Assembly (NCBI GenBank): GCA_964345045.1
Contig: CAYFPM010000001.1
Coordinates: forward strand, 375,632-439,631
Origin: an uncultured Gammaproteobacteria bacterium
Lineage (GTDB): Bacteria; Patescibacteriota; Patescibacteriia; Magasanikbacterales; UBA922
Direction of reading: 5' to 3'
DNA: 64,000 nt
The translations under genes were made by a program, and so were the position numbers. The notes under the pieces were generated by a model. That model saw only the letters and a list, made by a program, of their open reading frames with translations, searched no databases and was not told the DNA's origin. This document shows positions 2,968 through 54,431 of the stretch, one piece after another. Numbering within the stretch: the first letter of the stretch is position 1; every line of letters starts with the position of its first letter.

Positions 2968-3021
2968 GCAAGCAAACAATAAAGCAAAAAAACCAGAAAG
3001 CAATAAAAATAGAATAGTAAA

Positions 3022-3048
3022 GCACCGGGGTTGTCCTGGTGCTTTTTA
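3022..3048 (+). terminator. rho-independent terminator after the dsbA-like gene
   Basis: gcaccggggttgtcctggtgc hairpin followed by TTTTT. Confidence 0.5.
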
Positions 3049-3103
3049 ATTAGTTGATTTAATGATTTAAAGTTTTTTTGCTTTATTGTTTTCTTGATTT
3101 CAT

Positions 3104-7938: not shown

Positions 7939-8223
7939 ATGGACCAAGGTGACAGACAAATGTACGAAGTAAACGAAAAATGTGCAGAATGTGGTGCGGC
8001 TATTACAAAGCTTCCATTTCAACCAAGTGGTGACAAACCGCTTTACTGCTCAGATTGTCTTCGTGCCAAACGTCAAAACAATCGCGATCGCGCTCCACGT
8101 CAAATGTTTGACGTAGATCTAAAATGTGGGGAATGTGGTGCTGCTATTACACAGCTTCCGTTCCAACCATCTGGTGATCGTCCTGTTTACTGCTTTGACT
8201 GTGTCAAAGCTAGACGTAACTAG
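7939..8223 (+). CDS. tandem zinc-ribbon protein (2x CxxC-x17-CxxC)
   Basis: Two near-identical repeats KC(A/G)ECGAAIT(K/Q)LPFQPSGD(K/R)P(L/V)YC(S/F)DC; the longest ORF starts at 7843; lies immediately upstream of the ECF sigma gene. Confidence 0.55.
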   Translation: MDQGDRQMYEVNEKCAECGAAITKLPFQPSGDKPLYCSDCLRAKRQNNRDRAPRQMFDVDLKCGECGAAITQLPFQPSGDRPVYCFDCVKARRN

Positions 8224-28736: not shown

Positions 28737-28767
28737 AAACCGACTTGTGTAGACAAGTCGGTTTTTG
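28737..28767 (+). terminator. rho-independent terminator after rpsI
   Basis: ccgacttgtgtagacaagtcgg hairpin followed by TTTTTG; preceded by a tacgaa-type short repeat. Confidence 0.55.
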
Positions 28768-28799
28768 TTTTTGAATGGTGGGAGAGAGTCTCCTTGATG

Positions 28800-29099
28800 T
28801 TATTGGTCTTGAGGTTTGACTGGTCGGCCATCTGGTGAAATTTCTGTAAGGGCTTTTAGCACCTTGGTTACAATGCTTTCGGACATCTCATCGGGTACCC
28901 AGTTTCCTTGCCATTTCCCACCTGCAAAAAGCAAACCAGCGTGAAAAACTACTTTTTCATCTGCGTCAACTTGTTTCAGATCGGCAATATGGGTGTCGCC
29001 CTCTCGCCAGCAGCAGGTGACTTGGTACCTGTTGCCCTCTTCTTCAAAACTCCAGGCAAAGCCTCCGTGGTCATTGTACTCAAGATCTTCTGGTTTCAC
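28800..29099 (-). CDS. GC-rich hypothetical protein (~99 aa; start uncertain)
   Basis: Start placed at GTG 29099 with a GGGAG SD. The track ORF runs to 29366, but a minus-strand terminator (caactcccaaagagttgttttttt, ~29140-29165) sits upstream, so the long form is unlikely. GC about 47%. Confidence 0.3.
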   Translation of the reverse strand: MKPEDLEYNDHGGFAWSFEEEGNRYQVTCCWREGDTHIADLKQVDADEKVVFHAGLLFAGGKWQGNWVPDEMSESIVTKVLKALTEISPDGRPVKPQDQ

Positions 29100-29230
29100 A
29101 TTTTCTCCCACTTGATTGTAATGAAAGTAAAAATTTTTTGCAATAAAAAAACAACTCTTTGGGAGTTGCTTAATTTTTGGATTGTCCTGACGAACTTGGC
29201 TTCTGTTGTAACTGCAATTCTCTAGTTTTG

Positions 29231-29590
29231 TCAGGTTTCTTCTTCTACCACTGTATAGGCGGGGAGTTCCCCATTGGGCGATAGGACTTTGATGCGAATC
29301 ATAAATGGGTTTATACAAACTTGGTGGGCATCTGGAACATTGGAGTCTCTCGATACCTCTAGCCATCTACCATCGAACCATCTGCAGATGTATTGTACCG
29401 TTGCCCCCTTGGGTCCATAGAAATCTGTCAGATTCATCTCTGCTTTGGCGCCATGCTCTCCATGAATCTTGACCAGGCAGATAGCATTCCGTCCTTTGAT
29501 AAGAGCCGCCCAACTGACAGATTCCATGAATTCAGCATCAACATAGGTTGCTTTTGTTCCGTCATGGTCGAGGGTAACTTCTATACTCAT
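29231..29590 (-). CDS. GC-rich hypothetical protein (119 aa)
   Basis: ATG at 29588-29590 with GGAG about 10 nt upstream; terminator hairpin immediately after the stop; no recognised motif. Confidence 0.4.
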   Translation of the reverse strand: MSIEVTLDHDGTKATYVDAEFMESVSWAALIKGRNAICLVKIHGEHGAKAEMNLTDFYGPKGATVQYICRWFDGRWLEVSRDSNVPDAHQVCINPFMIRIKVLSPNGELPAYTVVEEET

Positions 29591-29689
29591 GTGGTCAATC
29601 TCCTGTATAAACAAGATTAATTGAGTTATAAGTTTGTGTCAAATAATCCAACTTGAAAATTAGCTATTTTTAGAATAAAATTAGACTAT

Positions 29690-31120
29690 ATGGCAAACTC
29701 TATTACCAAAAATACCGCTTTTATGACTATGGCCTCGGTCGGCCAAAAAATAGTCGCTTTTGTATACTTTACACTTATTGCTAGAAATATCGGAGCAGAG
29801 GGAACTGGTAAGTATTTTTTCGCCTTGTCTTTTACTACTATTTTTGTAGTTTTTGTAGATCTTGGTCTTACCAATGTTTTGGTACGCGAAGCCGCTAGGA
29901 TGAAAGAAAAAATGCAGCAATATTTGTCTACTATTTTGTCGGTAAAATTATTTTTTGGGGTTATAACTTATATTGTGGCGGTTATAACCATAAATTTGCT
30001 TGGCTACCCGATAGAAACCAAACACTTGGTTTATCTCTCGGCAGTGACCATGTTGTTTGATTCTTTGCATTTGACTATTTATGGAGTTTTGCGGGCCATT
30101 GGAGATTTGAAATACGAAGCAATTGGTATTGTAAGTAGTCAATTAATTACGCTTATTTTGGGTAGTATATTCTTATATTTTGGTTACCCGCTTATTTTTC
30201 TTATTCTTGCTTTTACTATTCCTAGTTTCTTCAATGTTTTGTTTGCTGCTACAGTTCTAATAAGTAAATATAAAATAAGTCTAAAACCCAAGTTTGAAAA
30301 AGAAACTTTTTTGTTTATTTCCAAGATTGCCGTGCCTTTTGCCTTGGCCGCAGTTTTTGCGAGGGTCTATTCGTATATAGATTCAGTTTTACTTTCCAAA
30401 CTGGCAGGAGATGTGGCAGTCGGTTGGTACAGTATTGCTTACAAAATTACTTTTGCTTTTCAGTTTGTGCCGCTTGCTTTGGTGGCAGCTCTGTACCCAC
30501 GTTTTAGCGAATATTTCAAAAATAATAAAAGTAAGCTTTCCTTTGCTTTTGAACAAAGTTTAAAATATTTGTTGATAATAGCTTTTCCAATTGTATTTGG
30601 GATTTCCATACTAGCCAAGGATATTGTACTTACTCTTTATACAGAAGAATTTATAAACGCTATTTTGCCATTGCAAATTCTTTTGGCAGGTTTGATTTTT
30701 TCTTATGTTAGTTTTCCTATTGGAGCTTTTCTCAATGCTTGTGACAGACAAAAAACACAAACAACTATTGTAGGAATTGTTCTTAGTTTTAATGTAGTTT
30801 TGAATTTAATTTTGATACCCAAGTTTGGAGTAGTTGGAGCGGCCAGTGCTGCTGCTATTGGCAATGTGCTTTTGACAATTTTGGGGTATGCTGTAGCGCC
30901 AAGTATTAGCAAAATTAGACATAGTTTTATATTAAAAACTTTTATTCAACTTTTAGTTTCGGCTAGTGTAATGGGAGTATTTGTTTGGTATATCAATAAG
31001 TTATCTAATTTTATTTTGGCAATTTTGGTTGGAGCCGTGGTTTATCCGTTTATGTTATTTATAACTAGAGCTGTTACCAAAAGACAACTAAGAGAAGCTA
31101 TTTTGTTTGTAAAAAGATGA
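29690..31120 (+). CDS. polysaccharide/oligosaccharide flippase (Wzx-like, MOP superfamily)
   Basis: 476 aa with about 12-14 TM helices and a typical Wzx N-terminus (KNTAFMTMASVGQKIVAFVYFTLIAR). Confidence 0.7.
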   Translation: MANSITKNTAFMTMASVGQKIVAFVYFTLIARNIGAEGTGKYFFALSFTTIFVVFVDLGLTNVLVREAARMKEKMQQYLSTILSVKLFFGVITYIVAVITINLLGYPIETKHLVYLSAVTMLFDSLHLTIYGVLRAIGDLKYEAIGIVSSQLITLILGSIFLYFGYPLIFLILAFTIPSFFNVLFAATVLISKYKISLKPKFEKETFLFISKIAVPFALAAVFARVYSYIDSVLLSKLAGDVAVGWYSIAYKITFAFQFVPLALVAALYPRFSEYFKNNKSKLSFAFEQSLKYLLIIAFPIVFGISILAKDIVLTLYTEEFINAILPLQILLAGLIFSYVSFPIGAFLNACDRQKTQTTIVGIVLSFNVVLNLILIPKFGVVGAASAAAIGNVLLTILGYAVAPSISKIRHSFILKTFIQLLVSASVMGVFVWYINKLSNFILAILVGAVVYPFMLFITRAVTKRQLREAILFVKR

Positions 31121-31130
31121 AGTATCAATT

Positions 31131-31203
31131 ATCACTATTTTTTTGCTGCGGAATAAGGCTCACTTCGTTCTCGCAAACGTCCTCGCTGCAAAAATAGTGA
31201 TAA
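31131..31203. repeat. 72-bp GC-rich palindromic repeat element, copy 1
   Basis: atcactatttttttgctgcggaataaggctcacttcgttctcgcaaacgtcctcgctgcaaaaatagtgat; internally palindromic; about 95% identical to 32466-32539. Confidence 0.6.
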
Positions 31204-31277
31204 TTGAATTTAATATTTGTCATAATTTTTACTAAATCTATTATTTAAAAATCAGGATTCTATAAGATAATTATTAT

Positions 31278-32435
31278 ATGAAAAAAGTTTTATTAGTTAC
31301 TTTGGAGCATCCTCCACAGATTGGGGGGATTGCGACTTATTGTCATGATTTGGCAGCGGCTCTGGGCAAAGAAAATGTTGTAGTTTTGGCTCCAGCTGGC
31401 AAAGACAAGTACGCCACGCAAGCAGAAAAATTAGCTTGGGACAAAGAACAACCTTACAAAATTGTACGTAAGCGAATGTTATTGCCAAAGTTTATTTGGC
31501 CTCGTTGGATTTTGTTAGGCTGGCAGCTTTGGCGTACAGCCAAAGAAGAAAATTGTCAGATTGTATTTGTACAACATGTCTTGCCAGTAGGTTATGCCGC
31601 TATTTTTACCAAAATTATTGGCAAAATTCCGTTTTTATTATTTTCTCATGGTACAGATTTGGTAGCTGGTACAGCCAACTGGTGGAAGAAAAAAATGGTA
31701 ACCATGGTTTCGGAACATTCCGAAGAAATTATTTTTAATAGCGAATCACTCAAGCGTCGTTTTTTGCGAGTCTTGTCACAGTTCGAAAGTAAATCTTTGG
31801 TACTTTATCCTTGTCCGGAGCCGGCTTTTTTGGAGCCACCAAACGAGGCAGATTTGTTGGCCTTGCGTGCACAGTATGCGCTAGAAGGTAAAAAAGTTTT
31901 GCTTTCTATTTCTAGATTAACCGATGGTAAGGGGTTCCCACACCTTATAAATATAATGCCCGAGGTTTTGAAAAAAAATCCGAACTTGGTTTGGTTTATC
32001 GTAGGAGATGGACCAAAAAAGAATGAAATTATAAAACATATTAGAGAAAATAATTTACAAAATATTGTTCGTTTTATTGGAGAAATTCCACATATCGCTT
32101 TGCATCAATATTATTATTTGGCAGATCTTTTTGTACTGTTAACTCATCCGGACGAAGGTAAAGAAGAAGGTTTGGGATTGGTATTTTTGGAGGCTTCGGC
32201 AGCGGGTTTGCCTATAGTGGCTGGCAAAAGTGGGGGAGTAGAAGAGGCAGTATTAGACAAACAAACCGGTTTGGTGGTGGACACTCACAATGGTACAGAA
32301 GTGGCGGAAGCAATCTTGGGGATGCTAGAAAACGAGGGGCAAGCCAAACAATTTGGAAATGCTGCTAAAAATAGAATTATTAATGATTTTAATTGGCCAA
32401 AACAAGTGGCAAAGCTAGGTCCTTGGTTAAAATAG
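31278..32435 (+). CDS. glycosyltransferase family 4 (GT-B, group 1)
   Basis: C-terminal EASAAGLPIVAGKSGGVEEAV...GLVVD (EX7E-type GT1 motif). Confidence 0.8.
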   Translation: MKKVLLVTLEHPPQIGGIATYCHDLAAALGKENVVVLAPAGKDKYATQAEKLAWDKEQPYKIVRKRMLLPKFIWPRWILLGWQLWRTAKEENCQIVFVQHVLPVGYAAIFTKIIGKIPFLLFSHGTDLVAGTANWWKKKMVTMVSEHSEEIIFNSESLKRRFLRVLSQFESKSLVLYPCPEPAFLEPPNEADLLALRAQYALEGKKVLLSISRLTDGKGFPHLINIMPEVLKKNPNLVWFIVGDGPKKNEIIKHIRENNLQNIVRFIGEIPHIALHQYYYLADLFVLLTHPDEGKEEGLGLVFLEASAAGLPIVAGKSGGVEEAVLDKQTGLVVDTHNGTEVAEAILGMLENEGQAKQFGNAAKNRIINDFNWPKQVAKLGPWLK

Positions 32436-32465
32436 CCTTATAATTTTGAATTACAGTAGTATCAG

Positions 32466-32539
32466 GAATCACTATTTTTTTGCTGCGGAATAAGGCTCGC
32501 TTCGCTCTCGCAAACGTCCTCGCTGCAAGAATAGTGATT
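32466..32539. repeat. 72-bp GC-rich palindromic repeat element, copy 2
   Basis: gaatcactatttttttgctgcggaataaggctcgcttcgctctcgcaaacgtcctcgctgcaagaatagtgattc; with copy 1 it lies on both sides of the GT4 gene. Confidence 0.6.
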
Positions 32540-32610
32540 CCTTCACTTTAGAGGTAATTCAAAATAATATTTAGATAGATCACTTCATTCAGGATGGCTC
32601 TTAGAGAACT

Positions 32611-33309
32611 ATGCACGACTTAATTAGTATAATTATTCCGGTTTACAATCACGAAGCAGAACTTCGACATGCTTTGGATTCTATTTTTTTGCAAACTTAC
32701 AAAAATATAGAAGTGATTGTGGTAAACGATGGATCGCAAAAACCCTTACAACTTACAACTTATAACTTACAACTGATTAATCAGGAAAATAAAGGTGCTC
32801 CGGCAGCTAGAAACAGAGGTCTAAGAGAGGCCAAAGGAGATTATGTAATATTTTGGGATGCCGATGTGGTGGCCGAGCCAGAAATGTTAGAAAAAATGCA
32901 TCATGTGCTAGAAATACATCCAGAAGCTAGTTATGTTTACAGTGATTTTTGTTTTGGCGACAAACTAATGAAAGCCCAAAAGTTTTCTGCCGAAGCTTTG
33001 CAAAAAAATAATTTTATTCATTCTACTTCTTTGATTAGAAAAGAGGCTATGGAAAAGATTGCTTGGGACGAAAGTTTAAAAAGATTTCAAGATTGGGATT
33101 TGTGGTTAACAATGCTCAAAAAAAGAAAAGAGGGGATTTATATTCCGGAAACCTTGTTTAAGGTAGTCCCCAGAAAAACCGGCATAAGTAGCTGGTTGCC
33201 GTCGTTTGCTTACAAAAAACCTTTTAGATTTTTGCCAGGCTTTGCAAAAAGAGTTAGAGAATATGAGGAAAAGAAGGAAATTGTGATGAAGAAACAAGGA
33301 CTTCTTTAG
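32611..33309 (+). CDS. glycosyltransferase family 2 (GT-A)
   Basis: SIIIPVYNHEAELRHALDSIFLQTY...VVNDGS, DxD-like WDADVV; contains a short acaactta-type tandem repeat at ~32745-32775. Confidence 0.8.
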   Translation: MHDLISIIIPVYNHEAELRHALDSIFLQTYKNIEVIVVNDGSQKPLQLTTYNLQLINQENKGAPAARNRGLREAKGDYVIFWDADVVAEPEMLEKMHHVLEIHPEASYVYSDFCFGDKLMKAQKFSAEALQKNNFIHSTSLIRKEAMEKIAWDESLKRFQDWDLWLTMLKKRKEGIYIPETLFKVVPRKTGISSWLPSFAYKKPFRFLPGFAKRVREYEEKKEIVMKKQGLL

Positions 33310-33383
33310 TAATTTGTAAACAGTAAATTGTAAATAGATATTTACTTATCGCAGACGCTTTCTCCAAGTAACTTGTTATGTAA

Positions 33384-33446
33384 GGGATCCTTCGGCTTTG
33401 CCTCAGGATGACTCGTGTAGTCATTCTGAGCGTTAGCGAAGAATCT
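33384..33446. repeat. dispersed GC-rich repeat element (intergenic copy)
   Basis: Blocks gggatccttcg, caggatgactc, gtcattctgagcg and gaagaatctc recur, circularly permuted, inside tatD at 47533-47614. Confidence 0.5.
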
Positions 33447-33451
33447 CTAAC

Positions 33452-34909
33452 CTATAAGATCTCTCTAACCTTATCTACCAACACATCTACAAAGCTGTGT
33501 TTTTCTGTAGAAATAGTAAAAGCGTATACAAAAAAGACAATCCCAAATAAATGAAAAATAAGAGGGGCGGTAATGTTCATAAGTAAAACAGCAAACAAGC
33601 TAGCTACAACTCCAAGTTCTATAAATTGACAATGTGGATCTTTTTTGTAAATTTTTATAAGTTTATAAATTAAATAAACCAAAACAGTTAATAAAATTGC
33701 CAAACCAATGATTCCCATTTCGGCTAATATTTCTAGATAACCCCAATCAAATTGTCGAGTAGTGATTTGTGAAAATCCACCATCTGGATTGGGGGCAAAG
33801 AAGGTAACGCTGCTGCCAAGCCCATGGCCATAAAAGGGATTTTGTTTTACTAATTCTATCGCTGGTGTAAGTAATGCCGATCTGGTATAAGCACTTAGCT
33901 CTGTGCTAGGACTAGCAATGCTTCCAAAACGATTACTAATTAGTGCCAATCCAAAAGAAGTAAAATTACTAGCAACTAAGTGAATAGAGAAAAATAAAAA
34001 TATGGTAATGCCAGCTAGACTAGCAGACACTTTGAACCATTTTTTGAAATTTTGTTTGTAAAGTAGAATTAAAAATCCAAAAGCTAATCCCAAAAAGTAA
34101 GTGCGAGAAAGATTTAGTACTAGAGTAAACAAAGCTAGTGTTGCTAGGGTGTAAAAAAGTTTATTATGTTTGTCTGTTTTCATTAGTTTGGCAGCCGCAC
34201 CCAACACAATTGGTACGAGTAGCAAGTGAATAGGCTCGACAATACGAAAAAATCCAGTGCCTGTGTTTGTTATTTTGCCAGCCAGGACATCGCGAATCCA
34301 TTTGTAGTAGGGATCATGAATTATTTCCCAGCCTATAGTAAACACAACAAAATTGTATAAGCCAAAAATAGCGGTGCCGATAACAAAGGCAATTAATAAG
34401 TTTTTGCAATAGTTTATTAGTTTTTTGTCCTCGAATAATTCTGTAGAAGGAAAGACAAGTAAAATATATAGGTAAGGAATAAAATCTTGTGTGGCTGCGA
34501 AAAAACCATTGTTAATAGCTCCTAGAATCCAAAATATACCGACAAAAGCAATTAAGCCAAAGATTGCTAATCTTTGGGTTTTGTTTAGGTGTTTGCTAAG
34601 TTTTTTTCTATTGATTATTTTATCGCCAAACCAGAGAGTTACAAATGTGACAAGGAATACACTACGGAGTGACAGGCCGTAGAGTTCTAGCAGTTGCCCA
34701 GATCCCCCGAGAAGTAGTTCTGTTATAACTATAGCAAAAGCCGTTTTTGGAGATCGGTAATAAGCATAGCCTAAAGTTATGACTAATAAGAAGGTGAGGA
34801 GGGATTGAAGGATTAAATGGTTTGCAGTGAAGTAGGAAAGAATGCGAAAAGAAAAAAATGTTAACAACAAGATGATTATTTGGCTTTGTTTGTTTGGTTT
34901 CATATACAA
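33452..34909 (-). CDS. O-antigen ligase/polymerase-like polytopic membrane protein (Wzy/WaaL family, tentative)
   Basis: 485 aa, more than 10 TM helices with a central periplasmic loop; sits in the glycosyltransferase/flippase neighbourhood. Confidence 0.45.
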   Translation of the reverse strand: MYMKPNKQSQIIILLLTFFSFRILSYFTANHLILQSLLTFLLVITLGYAYYRSPKTAFAIVITELLLGGSGQLLELYGLSLRSVFLVTFVTLWFGDKIINRKKLSKHLNKTQRLAIFGLIAFVGIFWILGAINNGFFAATQDFIPYLYILLVFPSTELFEDKKLINYCKNLLIAFVIGTAIFGLYNFVVFTIGWEIIHDPYYKWIRDVLAGKITNTGTGFFRIVEPIHLLLVPIVLGAAAKLMKTDKHNKLFYTLATLALFTLVLNLSRTYFLGLAFGFLILLYKQNFKKWFKVSASLAGITIFLFFSIHLVASNFTSFGLALISNRFGSIASPSTELSAYTRSALLTPAIELVKQNPFYGHGLGSSVTFFAPNPDGGFSQITTRQFDWGYLEILAEMGIIGLAILLTVLVYLIYKLIKIYKKDPHCQFIELGVVASLFAVLLMNITAPLIFHLFGIVFFVYAFTISTEKHSFVDVLVDKVREIL

Positions 34910-35885: not shown

Positions 35886-36629
35886 TTATTTAAAAATCAA
35901 AACTGCGGCTGAAATAAGAACTACCAAACCAAATAAAATTTTCACCCATTCTGCTCCTTTTTTTAAGGCTGTATGAGCTCCTAGCCAACCGCCCACCAAC
36001 ATCCCCAGAAAAAGAGCAATTCCATATTCGATATTAACAATCCCATTCATCGTAAACATAATCAATGGAATTAAGGTTATAAAAATACCTGGAATTTTCA
36101 TGGTGGCGGCTGATTCTATTGTAGTGAATCCAAAAAAGATCATGTATACGTAGGCTGTAAGTGTAGCCCCGGCTGCTCCAAAAAAAGCTCCCCAAGTTTG
36201 GGTTAAAAAATTTAAACAGTAACCAATGAAATTTTTGAATTTGCTGTGTTCACGGTTGATAGTTCCTATTTCTTTTTTGTAAAAAAGCAAAGGTAAAAGT
36301 GCCAAGATAATAATACTAATCAAAACTTCCAAAATTTTTCTATCAATATTCAAAAGTAATTGAGCTCCTAAGTAAGAAGAAAAAATAGCCATGATAGAAA
36401 AAGCTGGCACATATTTCCATTGGATTTTGTCGCTTTTTACATATCTAGACAAAGCTCCCAACAAAAGGCCAAATCCACCAAATTTGTTGGTAGCAATAGC
36501 TACTTGTGGTGGCACACCCATAAAAATTAAAAAAGGGATAGATACTAGTCCACCACCTCCAACCATAGCGCCAAACCAGGCGGCAAATGCCCCTACAAAA
36601 AATATCGCAATGTCGGCCCCAATGTTCAT
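35886..36629 (-). CDS. TauE/SafE-family (DUF81) membrane transporter
   Basis: 247 aa, 7-8 TM helices, GGGGLVSIPFLIFMGVPPQVAIATNKF signature. Confidence 0.7.
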   Translation of the reverse strand: MNIGADIAIFFVGAFAAWFGAMVGGGGLVSIPFLIFMGVPPQVAIATNKFGGFGLLLGALSRYVKSDKIQWKYVPAFSIMAIFSSYLGAQLLLNIDRKILEVLISIIILALLPLLFYKKEIGTINREHSKFKNFIGYCLNFLTQTWGAFFGAAGATLTAYVYMIFFGFTTIESAATMKIPGIFITLIPLIMFTMNGIVNIEYGIALFLGMLVGGWLGAHTALKKGAEWVKILFGLVVLISAAVLIFK

Positions 36630-46967: not shown

Positions 46968-47034
46968 GCAGATTAAAAAAGATTACGCAGATTTAAATTC
47001 AAAAATCTGCGTAATCTTAAATAATCTGCGCAAT
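46968..47034. promoter_or_regulatory. cluster of GATTACGCAGATTT motifs (1 direct, 2 inverted)
   Basis: gattacgcagattt (46981), aaatctgcgtaatc (47004), taatctgcgcaatc (47021); ends 9 nt upstream of the tatD start. Confidence 0.4.
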
Positions 47035-47042
47035 CAACTTAT

Positions 47043-47975
47043 ATGATGATAGATACTCACTGCCATGTGCAGTTCAAAGCTTTTAAAGATGATTACGAAG
47101 AAGTAATAAAAAAGTGCCTCGACAAAGGCATGATTTTGAATTTGGTGGGTACACAAAAAGACACTAGCCAGTGGGGCGTAGAATTGGCAGAACAGTATGA
47201 CAATGTTTACGCTAGTATAGGCACACATCCATTACACCTGCATCCTACTCATGTAGACGAAGAAGAAACACATTTTATGTCTCGCGAAGAAAGTTTTGAT
47301 TGGGAACATTACGAAAAATTAGCCAAATCAAAAAAAGTAATCGGAGTGGGGGAGTGTGGGCTAGAACTTTTTCATGTACCAAAAGACAAAACCAAAGAAG
47401 AAGTTTTGGCCAAACAAAAAATAGTATTTTTAGATCATGTGCGGTTTGCTAGCCAACACAACTTACCATTAGTAGTGCACTGCCGTGATGCCCACGACGA
47501 GATGATTGAATTGTTACAAAATTATTTGACCAGTCATTCTGAGCGAAGCGCAGCGGAGTCGAAGAATCTCGGTGAATTACCAAAGGGATCCTTCGTTAGC
47601 ACTCAAGATGACTCTGGAAAATTTAGAGGAACAATCCACTGCTTCACCTCCAACTGGGATCATGCTCAAAAATATTTGGATATGGGATTTAATCTAGGTT
47701 TTACCGGAGTAGTGACTTTTCCACCAAAAAAGACCGATCCCCAGCCACAGCTGGATCTAGAAGAAGTAATTCAAAATATACCGCTAGATAAAATAGTGGT
47801 AGAAACAGACTCTCCATATCTAGCCCCACAGGCCTATAGAGGCAAGCGATCCGAACCCTGGATGGTAGAAGAAGTAATCAAAAAATTCGCTAAAGTAAGA
47901 GGAAAAAGTCAAAAAGAAATGGAAGACATTATAGCCGAAAATACCCTTCGATTATTTACACACATACAAGCTTAA
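47043..47975 (+). CDS. tatD: TatD-family metal-dependent hydrolase (DNase)
   Basis: IDTHCHV, GVGECGLE, HCRDAHDE, HCFTSN, ETDSPYL motifs; an extra ~30-aa segment (TSHSERSAAESKNLGELPKGSFVSTQDDSGKF) precedes HCF and is encoded by a dispersed repeat. Confidence 0.85.
   Translation: MMIDTHCHVQFKAFKDDYEEVIKKCLDKGMILNLVGTQKDTSQWGVELAEQYDNVYASIGTHPLHLHPTHVDEEETHFMSREESFDWEHYEKLAKSKKVIGVGECGLELFHVPKDKTKEEVLAKQKIVFLDHVRFASQHNLPLVVHCRDAHDEMIELLQNYLTSHSERSAAESKNLGELPKGSFVSTQDDSGKFRGTIHCFTSNWDHAQKYLDMGFNLGFTGVVTFPPKKTDPQPQLDLEEVIQNIPLDKIVVETDSPYLAPQAYRGKRSEPWMVEEVIKKFAKVRGKSQKEMEDIIAENTLRLFTHIQA
47533..47614. repeat. dispersed GC-rich repeat element inserted in-frame within tatD
   Basis: gtcattctgagcg, gaagaatctc, gggatccttcg and caagatgactc blocks shared with 33384-33446; GC-rich relative to the rest of tatD. 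Confidence 0.45.

Positions 47976-52982: not shown

Positions 52983-54431
<1,449 letters not shown>

Follow-up and report, generated by a model that had tools for sequence, protein, structure and literature searches.

The 81-nt repeat that stands on either side of a GT4 glycosyltransferase gene in a Candidatus Magasanikbacteria (CPR) bacterium is, on balance, probably a small non-coding hairpin palindrome that was copied, in this Magasanikbacteria lineage, into both intercistronic junctions of an envelope-glycan operon (flippase, GT4, GT2). It belongs to a familiar kind of small palindromic repeat, selfish or regulatory, and is not a gene-swapping cassette; the best reading is that of a low-copy non-coding palindrome of the MITE/ERIC/Correia type.

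Copy 1 lies at 31121-31201 and copy 2 at 32458-32538 of the window (the whole stretch of 64 kb that was analysed), both on the forward strand, in direct orientation and 1337 nt apart from start to start. Each comprises a 5' AGTATCA heptamer, 3 variable nt and a 71-nt palindromic core (31131-31201 and 32468-32538), and the edges of the homology are sharp. Copy 1 starts directly 3' of the flippase stop codon (31118-31120). The full copies are identical at 75 of 81 positions and the cores at 68 of 71 (95.8%), in agreement with the identity of about 95% given in a preliminary description of this DNA. The coordinates in that description were correct overall, although its second copy began 2 nt too early, and it had rightly placed one copy on each side of the GT4 gene (31278-32435). 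It had also called the element GC-rich. This is true of the 45-nt interior, with a GC content of 58–62% where the window has 36.6%. The whole core has only 42–46%, since its outer stem is A+T. A search of the 64 kb for a 45-nt core pattern, as many as 3 mismatches being tolerated, gave exactly these two sites, with 0 expected from 100 shuffles. Independent assemblies from three sequencing runs each contained the repeat, which is thus not an assembly artefact. When two assemblies were compared, a single SNP was observed over 21 kb and its position was within copy 2; an A/T polymorphism is present at 32489.

As the preliminary description had it, each copy is internally palindromic, and RNA structure prediction, which it had proposed, gave a strong hairpin for both. 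In copy 1 the arms at 31125-31142 and 31190-31207 (18 nt) are 100% complementary and the stem extends over 31125-31207; in copy 2 the arms at 32464-32479 and 32527-32542 (16 nt) are 94% complementary, with the stem at 32464-32542. The RNA folds of the copies have energies of −29 to −35 kcal/mol with z from −4.2 to −6.3, and the DNA folds have z of −5.1 and −7.3. The predicted structure is an imperfect hairpin with a stem of about 21 bp and a 33-nt apical region, this region being predicted differently for copy 1 and copy 2 in the minimum free energy folds. An outer inverted repeat at 32439-32569 on the forward strand (arms 32439-32454 and 32554-32569, 16 nt, 94% complementary) encloses copy 2 and makes its hairpin 131 nt long (−42.6 kcal/mol, z −5.1).

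Pairing is kept at all 9 of the positions that differ between the copies (alignment columns 7-85), the differences being four compensatory pairs and one change from U-A to U-G. Three of the compensatory pairs sit at the base of the stem, ATT/AAT against GGA/TCC, and the fourth is found at the apex, A-T against G-C. Paired cells amount to 100% with the true partners and 38–64% with the partners slid. A covariation test on just two sequences has low power: 32 of 500 shuffles matched the observed value, which is about the chance level for two sequences with four covarying pairs (roughly 1 in 16). Compensatory changes in a DNA palindrome need no selection and can arise through template switching in quasi-palindromes or through insertion at targets that are themselves palindromic.

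The operon into which the repeats are placed is a conserved one. The upstream gene, at 29690-31120, encodes a Wzx/MurJ-type polysaccharide flippase, the gene between the copies encodes the GT4 glycosyltransferase (Glycos_transf_1, 7.7e-37; Glyco_transf_4, 1.3e-14) and the downstream gene, at 32611-33309, encodes a GT2 glycosyltransferase, all three on the forward strand. Six contigs of relatives (L008-L011, L114 and L115), representing five distinct sequences, were compared with this locus. They have in common the gene order rpsI, flippase, GT4, GT2 and then a convergent Wzy-like gene, so that the flippase and GT2 positions are conserved, and their GT4 orthologues, 59–71% identical, are likewise bracketed by the flippase and GT2 genes. 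Homologues of GT4 and of the flippase also occur on the same contigs across Magasanikbacteria. Junction 1, between flippase and GT4, is 157 nt long here and 19–35 nt in the relatives; junction 2, between GT4 and GT2, is 175 nt here and 8–31 nt in the relatives, and no hairpin or repeat was found at either junction of the six contigs. Since the relatives have the same gene order with short junctions free of hairpins, it follows that GT4 is an ancestral member of the operon at this position and that the repeats entered two gaps between cistrons of a conserved operon as insertions specific to this lineage. The junctions have grown by about 130–160 nt, more than the 81–92 nt of the element account for, a point against the favoured reading.

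This synteny bears directly on the preliminary suggestion that the repeats serve cassette exchange or inversion. On that account the copies are recombination substrates that mediate loss, exchange or inversion of GT4 and so give rise to surface-glycan variation, either by homologous recombination of the 81-nt direct repeats or through the action of a site-specific recombinase on the palindromes (attC/pdif-like). Several features would suit such a role: exactly one gene is bracketed by the direct repeats, the imperfect palindromes are about as long as attC sites, a gene for a tyrosine recombinase is located 15 kb away and the sole SNP in 21 kb falls in copy 2. However, GT4 holds its position in all of the relatives, which do not have the repeats, and on contigs with the flanking genes from three runs there was neither a deleted, replaced or inverted arrangement nor the alternative gene content between the repeats that the preliminary description had proposed to look for. 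The nearby recombinase is a 270-aa Xer-type protein adjoining mnmA and not an IntI, and there are two sites only, with no array. Neither R'' (RYYYAAC) nor R' (GTTRRRY) boxes were found by inspection on either strand of 31100-31230 and 32440-32570; the only GTT/AAC triplets near the repeats (GTTTGTA, GTTCTCG and CGCAAAC) do not match the R-box consensus. As the copies are in direct orientation, recombination between them would delete GT4 and not invert it, and loss of GT4 in this way would be irreversible. A role in cassette exchange or inversion is thus contradicted by the synteny of GT4 in the six repeat-free contigs, and recombination at the repeats in any form is very improbable.

A further preliminary suggestion was that of a bidirectional terminator. 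As a terminator or insulator each hairpin would stop transcription of the upstream gene, perhaps on both strands, and every gene would become a transcription unit of its own. The strength of the stems, their location immediately 3' of stop codons (1 nt past that of the flippase for copy 1) and a sigma70-like promoter 16 nt beyond copy 1 are consistent with this, but copy 2 is not followed by a promoter-like site. A terminator scan of 30500-33500 gave no site at either copy and there is no T-run after the stem on either strand, whereas the genome's own rpsI terminator (28738-28775) consists of a canonical GC stem of 7–8 bp and a T-run. The element, at 71–131 nt with a 33-nt apical region, is moreover far above the size of an intrinsic terminator. 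Lacking a U-tract on both strands, the element is improbable as a terminator and the suggestion is not supported. It is scarcely credible that the repeat is a duplicated micro-ORF encoding a small protein on the minus strand, even though the frame SLFLQRGRLRERSEPYSAAKK is identical in both copies, with all three core substitutions synonymous in it (TTT/TTC, GAA/GAG and AGT/AGC), and a GTG-initiated ORF of 24 aa is present in copy 2. Copy 1 has an upstream stop codon and no equivalent start, no ORF has a start conserved in both copies, and the frame is antisense to the operon with no promoter seen. Five reading frames of the element, joined into a query of 121 aa, gave no match among 5.8 billion proteins at E up to 10. 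The period-3 pattern of the substitutions is largely a by-product, because two of the three, 6 nt apart, face each other across the apex.

The possibility of a dedicated cis-regulatory RNA or DNA hairpin, kept by selection as a binding or processing site about 72–76 nt upstream of the GT4 and GT2 start codons and controlling their expression, has to be weighed against the junction sequence outside the hairpin. This comprises an A+T-rich 76 nt in junction 1 (31202-31277) and 72 nt in junction 2 (32539-32610), so that the hairpin ends 76 nt before the ATG of GT4 and 72 nt before that of GT2. On the forward strand of junction 1 there is a sigma70-like site, TTGTCA-16-TATTAT, at 31217-31244 (10/12), 16 nt 3' of copy 1; no promoter-like site was found downstream of copy 2. 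The heptamer TCAGGAT is at +51 from the hairpin end in both junctions (31252-31258 and 32589-32595; p = 0.013). With the exception of this 7-mer, the junctions show no significant homology beyond the hairpin (p = 0.145 downstream and 0.84 upstream), the core being 96% identical and the remaining junction sequence 32%, which is the background level. The conserved core and spacing, the promoter-like site after copy 1, and the nature of the differences, which comprise four compensatory pairs and a single wobble change but none that disrupts pairing, argue for selection on the hairpin. Against it, the hairpin is absent from every relative, where the same genes are separated by junctions of 8–35 nt, the promoter-like site is lacking after copy 2, no candidate regulator was found, and two sequences give the covariation test little power. 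A recent duplication with sharp edges, furthermore, resembles the spread of a repeat. Selection for a cis-regulatory function is therefore rather unlikely, though worth bearing in mind.

Further copies were searched for in the window with 10 kb added on each side (84 kb in total) using blastn-short and a covariance model, R1, with filters off, the loci of the relatives being included. No third copy was found in the 84 kb, and the only additional hits were generic terminator-like hairpins with E above 0.01. As these 84 kb contain just two copies, separated by 1.3 kb, dispersal and mobility of the element are conjectural. Precomputed Pfam lists showed no integron-type integrase, transposase or RAYT within the 84 kb (no Y1_Tnp family). 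There was no Rfam match at the gathering score in the whole window, and within 30000-34000 none overlapped a copy even when E values of up to 10 were admitted. Public nucleotide collections were scanned with exact patterns only. A 17-mer from the left half gave three matches in IMG/VR, all due to chance on inspection, a 20-mer from the right half gave one chance match among the GTDB species representatives, in an Anaerolineae gene, and a 25-mer from the left core gave no match in the JGI metagenomes. A terminal-repeat pattern for either arm gave 0 matches in IMG/VR and 35 in JGI, none of them with the partner arm or with further similarity. The preliminary description had considered that the element might be one present at hundreds of random intergenic sites; this was not what was observed, with two copies in 84 kb and none in the public collections scanned.

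The genome contains other palindromes as well. A second palindrome family, with the sequence GTCATYCTGAGCGAAGCGAAGRATC, is located between GT2 and the Wzy-like gene, and another copy of it lies in frame in tatD as a 28-aa insert. Its 25-nt unit recurs without any change in 58 IMG/VR contigs that differ widely in base composition. A further hairpin is found between atpG and atpD. The sequence GATCACTTCATTCAGGATGGCTC, around the TCAGGAT of junction 2, resembles a decayed half-site of the second family, and the apex of copy 2 shares with this widespread family the 11-mer TCGCTTCGCTC. The similarity is not collinear beyond 11 nt, and a chance match has a probability of about 1e-3 by a back-of-envelope, post hoc calculation, making it a lead only. 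The second family may hold more general interest than the repeat described here.

Non-coding imperfect palindromes of about 70–150 nt in transcribed intergenic or intercistronic regions are known as ERIC/IRU in enterobacteria and Correia/NEMIS in Neisseria. These are lineage-specific insertions with tens to hundreds of copies, with a TA target duplication in Correia; the RNA hairpins are processed by RNase III in Correia and by RNase E in ERIC, and the stability of the flanking cistrons is changed. Like them, the element is an imperfect palindrome of about 70–150 nt between operon genes of the same strand, judged from its position to be transcribed, and it is non-coding, lineage-specific and matched by empty sites in relatives. 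Unlike them, it has only two copies in the 84 kb, no TA target duplication and a CPR host, and it has no sequence similarity to ERIC or Correia. The element also resembles MITEs in being small, non-coding and sharp-bordered, with perfect 12-nt terminal inverted repeats ATCACTATTTTT, and in being present or absent between lineages. It differs from MITEs in its copy number of two in the 84 kb, in an asymmetric extra 7 nt, AGTATCA, on the left side only, in having no parent IS with its ends, either within the window or among the JGI metagenomes scanned, and in the absence of a direct target-site duplication. The flanks of copy 2 are complementary and not direct (AGGA...TCCT), while those of copy 1 (AATT...AATT) are uninformative on target duplication because AATT is its own reverse complement.

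REPs are 20–40 nt long with hundreds of copies and are known as 3' mRNA stabilisers (malE-malF). The preliminary description had called the element REP-like, and the broad category of REP-like palindromic repeats does fit these real hairpin-forming copies: like REP/BIME, the element is an intergenic hairpin in an operon with a short 5' motif (GTAG in REP, AGTATCA here). It is unlike REPs in its length of 71–92 nt, its two copies and the lack of a RAYT gene in 84 kb, and GTAG is absent at copy 1 and stands beside copy 2 by chance only. As with integron attC sites or CALINs, mutually similar imperfect palindromes (57–141 nt in attC) stand in direct orientation on either side of a single ORF. However, the R''/R' boxes, IntI and array of such systems are missing, and the flanked GT4 is conserved and syntenic. 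Rickettsia palindromic elements (RPEs) are likewise palindromic repeats in a reduced genome, and the different palindrome family of this window sits in frame in tatD exactly as RPEs do in genes. The two copies of the repeat described here, by contrast, are both intergenic, and their sequence is unrelated to that of RPEs. TIGR arrays, which are tandem arrays of short units, were dismissed since the repeat consists of two copies 1.3 kb apart that are not in tandem.

The element would have spread by a transposition-like event or by template switching or gene conversion, as MITE, ERIC, Correia and REP-type elements do. With three genes on the same strand and no terminator between them, its position suggests that it is transcribed within the operon mRNA, which would carry it as the stem of about 21 bp with its apical region. 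The most plausible role of the long double-stranded stem would be processing by an enzyme of the RNase III type, stabilisation of the upstream cistron at its 3' end, or partial attenuation. The intercistronic stem-loop, probably transcribed within the operon, would thus affect processing, stability or attenuation, and expression would be uncoupled among three genes which are tightly packed, 8–35 nt apart, in the relatives. The element may equally be selectively neutral selfish DNA.

A more ambitious proposal is that the hairpin is a structure-selected element of the CPR lineage, either a module for RNA processing or for binding a regulator, through which the relative amounts of flippase, GT4 and GT2 are set, or a pair of recombinase sites that switches GT4 off and on. 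This is distinctly unlikely. If it were true, a reduced-genome episymbiont could vary its surface glycan by either role, and the pairing-preserving differences and the TCAGGAT at +51 would be signs of function.

The invasion of intercistronic gaps by small palindromic repeats is familiar from proteobacteria, Neisseria, streptococci and Rickettsia, and no description of such repeats in Candidate Phyla Radiation genomes was found in the literature searchable here. If the element is a low-copy palindrome of the MITE/ERIC/Correia type, it would be a modest addition to these. For annotators, repeats around a gene in a polysaccharide locus are not in themselves evidence of cassette exchange; the synteny of relatives settles the question. 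For the organism, this reading would mean that a reduced genome with packed operons (longest assembled contig 621 kb) tolerates or exploits insertions in a conserved envelope-glycan operon.

In a single lineage, two adjacent gaps between the cistrons of a conserved operon have each received a copy of a hairpin-forming, non-coding repeat. Copy 1 (31121–31201) and copy 2 (32458–32538), each 81 nt long and in direct orientation, match at 75 of 81 positions (region 30900–32800), and their 71-nt palindromic cores (31131–31201 and 32468–32538) match at 68 of 71. The preliminary description of two near-identical palindromic copies around the GT4 glycosyltransferase gene (31278–32435, + strand) is borne out by this core identity and by inverted arms of 18 nt (100% complementary) in copy 1 and 16 nt (94%) in copy 2. 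Its term 'GC-rich' fits the hairpin interior (58–62% GC against 36.6% for the window) but not the outer stem, which is A+T-rich. Three runs of ENA project PRJEB17505, each assembled independently, yielded the repeat sequence, as did Logan contigs, and it is therefore no assembly artefact. Short Logan contigs break at k-mers common to both copies. Over 21,158 bases aligned between the window and L001, an ENA contig from run ERR2281802, the sole difference was A to T at 32489 in the internal loop of copy 2 (GGAATAAGG to GGTATAAGG), which may be genuine variation or may have arisen at the repeat during assembly or consensus calling.

Across the 64-kb window a 45-nt core pattern allowing up to 3 mismatches hit only these two sites (chance expectation 0), and a window-wide repeat search found no third member. 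No further copies were found by blastn-short or an unfiltered covariance model in 84 kb (the window plus 10 kb on either side). Exact-pattern scans of IMG/VR, GTDB species representatives and JGI metagenomes gave chance matches only, five reading frames of the element had no match among 5.8 billion protein clusters, and Rfam had none either. Since these searches gave no relatives, the element appears, as far as can be seen in the 84 kb, to be low-copy and confined to this lineage.

The operon genes all lie on the + strand. A Wzx/MurJ-type flippase gene (29690–31120), itself downstream of an rpoA-rplQ-rplM-rpsI ribosomal cluster, precedes copy 1, and a GT2 glycosyltransferase gene (32611–33309) follows copy 2; 3' of GT2 are a convergent Wzy-like gene, then fmt and a TauE gene. 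The best-named homologues belong to Candidatus Magasanikbacteria (Patescibacteria/CPR), and identical proteins are also encoded on contigs of up to 621 kb. The closest relatives available have GT4 proteins of 59–71% identity and flippases of about 70%. Six relative contigs (L008, L009, L010, L011, L114 and L115, representing five distinct sequences) were compared, and all six have the order rpsI, flippase, GT4, GT2, followed by the Wzy-like gene and fmt on the opposite strand. Their flippase/GT4 gaps are 19, 27, 27, 20, 35 and 33 nt and their GT4/GT2 gaps 16, 31, 31, 10, 8 and 9 nt, none with a hairpin, against 157 and 175 nt in the window. Given this shared order and these short, hairpin-free gaps, GT4 belonged to this conserved operon ancestrally and has stayed in synteny. 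Together with some extra A+T-rich sequence, the repeats are lineage-specific insertions in two consecutive intercistronic gaps.

Other differences are found nearby. Between rpsI and the flippase gene the minus strand holds two hypothetical ORFs of 103 and 127 aa (28800–29614) with no Pfam match at E up to 0.1. This gap is only 15–86 nt in most relatives and contains a different 362-aa minus-strand ORF in L114, so that it looks like an insertion hotspot. A TauE/SafE-family gene (35886–36629) lies between fmt and def, which adjoin in L009 and L011, and is another lineage-specific insertion near the repeats.

The RNA structure prediction proposed in the preliminary description gave strong hairpins for both copies on either strand (–29 to –35 kcal/mol, z –4.2 to –6.3), and the DNA folds have z of –7.3 and –5.1. 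An outer inverted repeat (32439–32454/32554–32569) encloses copy 2 in a 131-nt stem-loop of –42.6 kcal/mol. The order of homology is AGTATCA, which in copy 1 is immediately 3' of the flippase stop codon, then 3 variable nt, the 71-nt core ATCACTATTTTTTTGCTGCGG...CGCTGCAA(A/G)AATAGTGAT and 3 variable nt. Beyond the hairpin, the two junctions show no relation to each other (32% ungapped identity; p = 0.145 for local alignment), with one exception: TCAGGAT, which each junction has exactly +51 from the end of the hairpin (31252–31258 after copy 1; p = 0.013 at the same offset, 0.086 if a 3-nt shift is allowed). The hairpin ends 76 nt from the GT4 start codon and 72 nt from that of GT2. A sigma70-like site (TTGTCA-16-TATTAT, 31217–31244) follows copy 1 and none follows copy 2. 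The GT4/GT2 junction also carries GATCACTTCATTCAGGATGGCTC (32576–32600), which, compared with GGATCCTTCGGCTTTGCCTCAGGATGACTC at 33384, seems to be a decayed half-site of a second palindrome family.

That the copies are a dedicated, selected regulatory structure is unlikely, though pairing is well preserved between them. In a structure whose 26 pairs were defined by hand, every pair is standard in both copies and all nine differing positions (columns 7–85) fall in pairing-preserving changes. The base of the stem has three fully compensatory pairs, with ATT/AAT in copy 1 against GGA/TCC in copy 2, and one A-T to G-C change lies across the apex (ACTTCGT against GCTTCGC) at a pair outside the MFE folds, which themselves differ between the copies. 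On the minus strand GCTTCGC becomes GCGAAGC, a sequence that makes a very stable DNA mini-hairpin. A further change, U-A to U-G, keeps pairing only in + strand RNA. Sliding the 3' partners reduced pairing to 38–64% and compensatory pairs to 0–1, while 32 of 500 shuffles reached the observed value, a control of little power with two sequences only. Without any selection, quasi-palindrome template switching can produce compensatory changes in a DNA palindrome. The stem-base block could reflect insertion into palindromic targets; the common AGTATCA outside the block argues against a simple target explanation. No direct target-site duplication surrounds the copies. A regulatory or recombination module under selection for its structure, by which an episymbiont would control a surface-glycan gene, is distinctly unlikely.

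A bidirectional terminator, as the preliminary description had proposed, or an insulator is quite improbable, as no U-run follows the stem on either strand and a terminator scan finds no site at either copy; the terminator that this genome has downstream of rpsI is of the canonical form. Recombination at the repeats is very improbable. There are no R boxes, array or IntI to indicate an attC site, and the 84 kb encode a single recombinase, a 270-aa Xer-type protein whose gene adjoins mnmA. The suggested cassette exchange for surface variation is contradicted by GT4 being ancestral and the repeats lineage-specific, and contigs with an identical flippase, GT4 or GT2 protein all show the same arrangement, with no alternative gene content between the repeats. 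A micro-ORF is hardly credible. The minus-strand frame SLFLQRGRLRERSEPYSAAKK is the same in both copies because the three core substitutions are all synonymous there, but the 6-nt spacing of two of these has a structural cause, the copies lack a common start and the protein collection contains no such peptide. Of the proposed likeness to REP, membership of the broad class of small palindromic repeats survives; REP/RAYT itself does not, the element being too long and too rare, with no GTAG head at copy 1 and no RAYT in the annotated 84 kb.

Other palindromes are present in the window. The second family, different from the focal repeat, has the unit GTCATYCTGAGCG..GCGAAGRATC and forms a full hairpin at 33383–33447 (GGGATCCTTCGGCTTTGCCTCAGGATGAC-tcgtgta-GTCATTCTGAGCGTTAGCGAAGAATCTC; –36 kcal/mol, z –4.9) in the gap where GT2 and the Wzy-like gene converge; two Logan contigs, each from a different run, terminate precisely inside it. 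An exact match to its consensus 25-mer GTCATYCTGAGCGAAGCGAAGRATC occurs in 58 IMG/VR contigs that differ widely in GC content, and an inverted partner frequently lies 15–60 nt away. The 25-mer, thus conserved exactly across unrelated genomes, was not found in the literature searched. Another copy (47533–47615) lies in frame in tatD (ORF 47043–47975), adding about 28 residues (SHSERSAAESKNLGELPKGSFVSTQDDS) and resembling the Rickettsia palindromic elements in coding genes; the 310-aa protein still matches the 253-position TatD_DNase profile end to end (1.3e-67). Long hairpins between atpG and atpD, the ATP synthase gamma and beta genes (52986–53044), and in the 430-nt gap upstream of tatD (46968–47029) are both built from (A/G)GCAGATTA motifs and may be a third small family. 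A 128-nt hairpin (2969–3096; 39-nt arms, 85% complementary, 50-nt spacer) separates a DsbA-like gene from a TraG/TrwB-like coupling-protein gene. Diverged direct repeats also occur: 87 nt with 78% identity, 703 nt apart (62151–62237/62854–62940), near and within a DNA_alkylation-repair gene, suggesting a partial tandem paralogue, and 117 nt with 74% identity, 144 nt apart (within 7957–8217). The second family and the other intercistronic hairpins, such as that of atpG/atpD, indicate that palindromic insertions are a general feature of this genome.

In appearance the focal element resembles the small palindromic repeats of the ERIC/Correia/MITE class, and by analogy it would work as they do, though it has no sequence in common with them and differs in lacking a direct target-site duplication and, over the 84 kb covered, in copy number. 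The searchable literature yielded no account of such elements from CPR genomes. Correia elements are processed by RNase III and ERIC elements by RNase E, and REP sequences are 3' stabilisers in malEFG. The reading we favour, with little more than even confidence, is a copied palindromic repeat that is co-transcribed and affects processing, stability or attenuation of the operon mRNA. It would have spread through a copying event, either transposition-like or template-directed, and would be transcribed with the three same-strand genes, probably forming in the mRNA a stem of some 21 bp, interrupted by one 2-nt bulge and one U-U mismatch and topped by a 33-nt apical region. Such a stem, judging from Correia, ERIC and REP, would be expected to give processing sites, 3' protective structures or attenuated read-through, and expression of genes that are 8–35 nt apart in relatives would be uncoupled.
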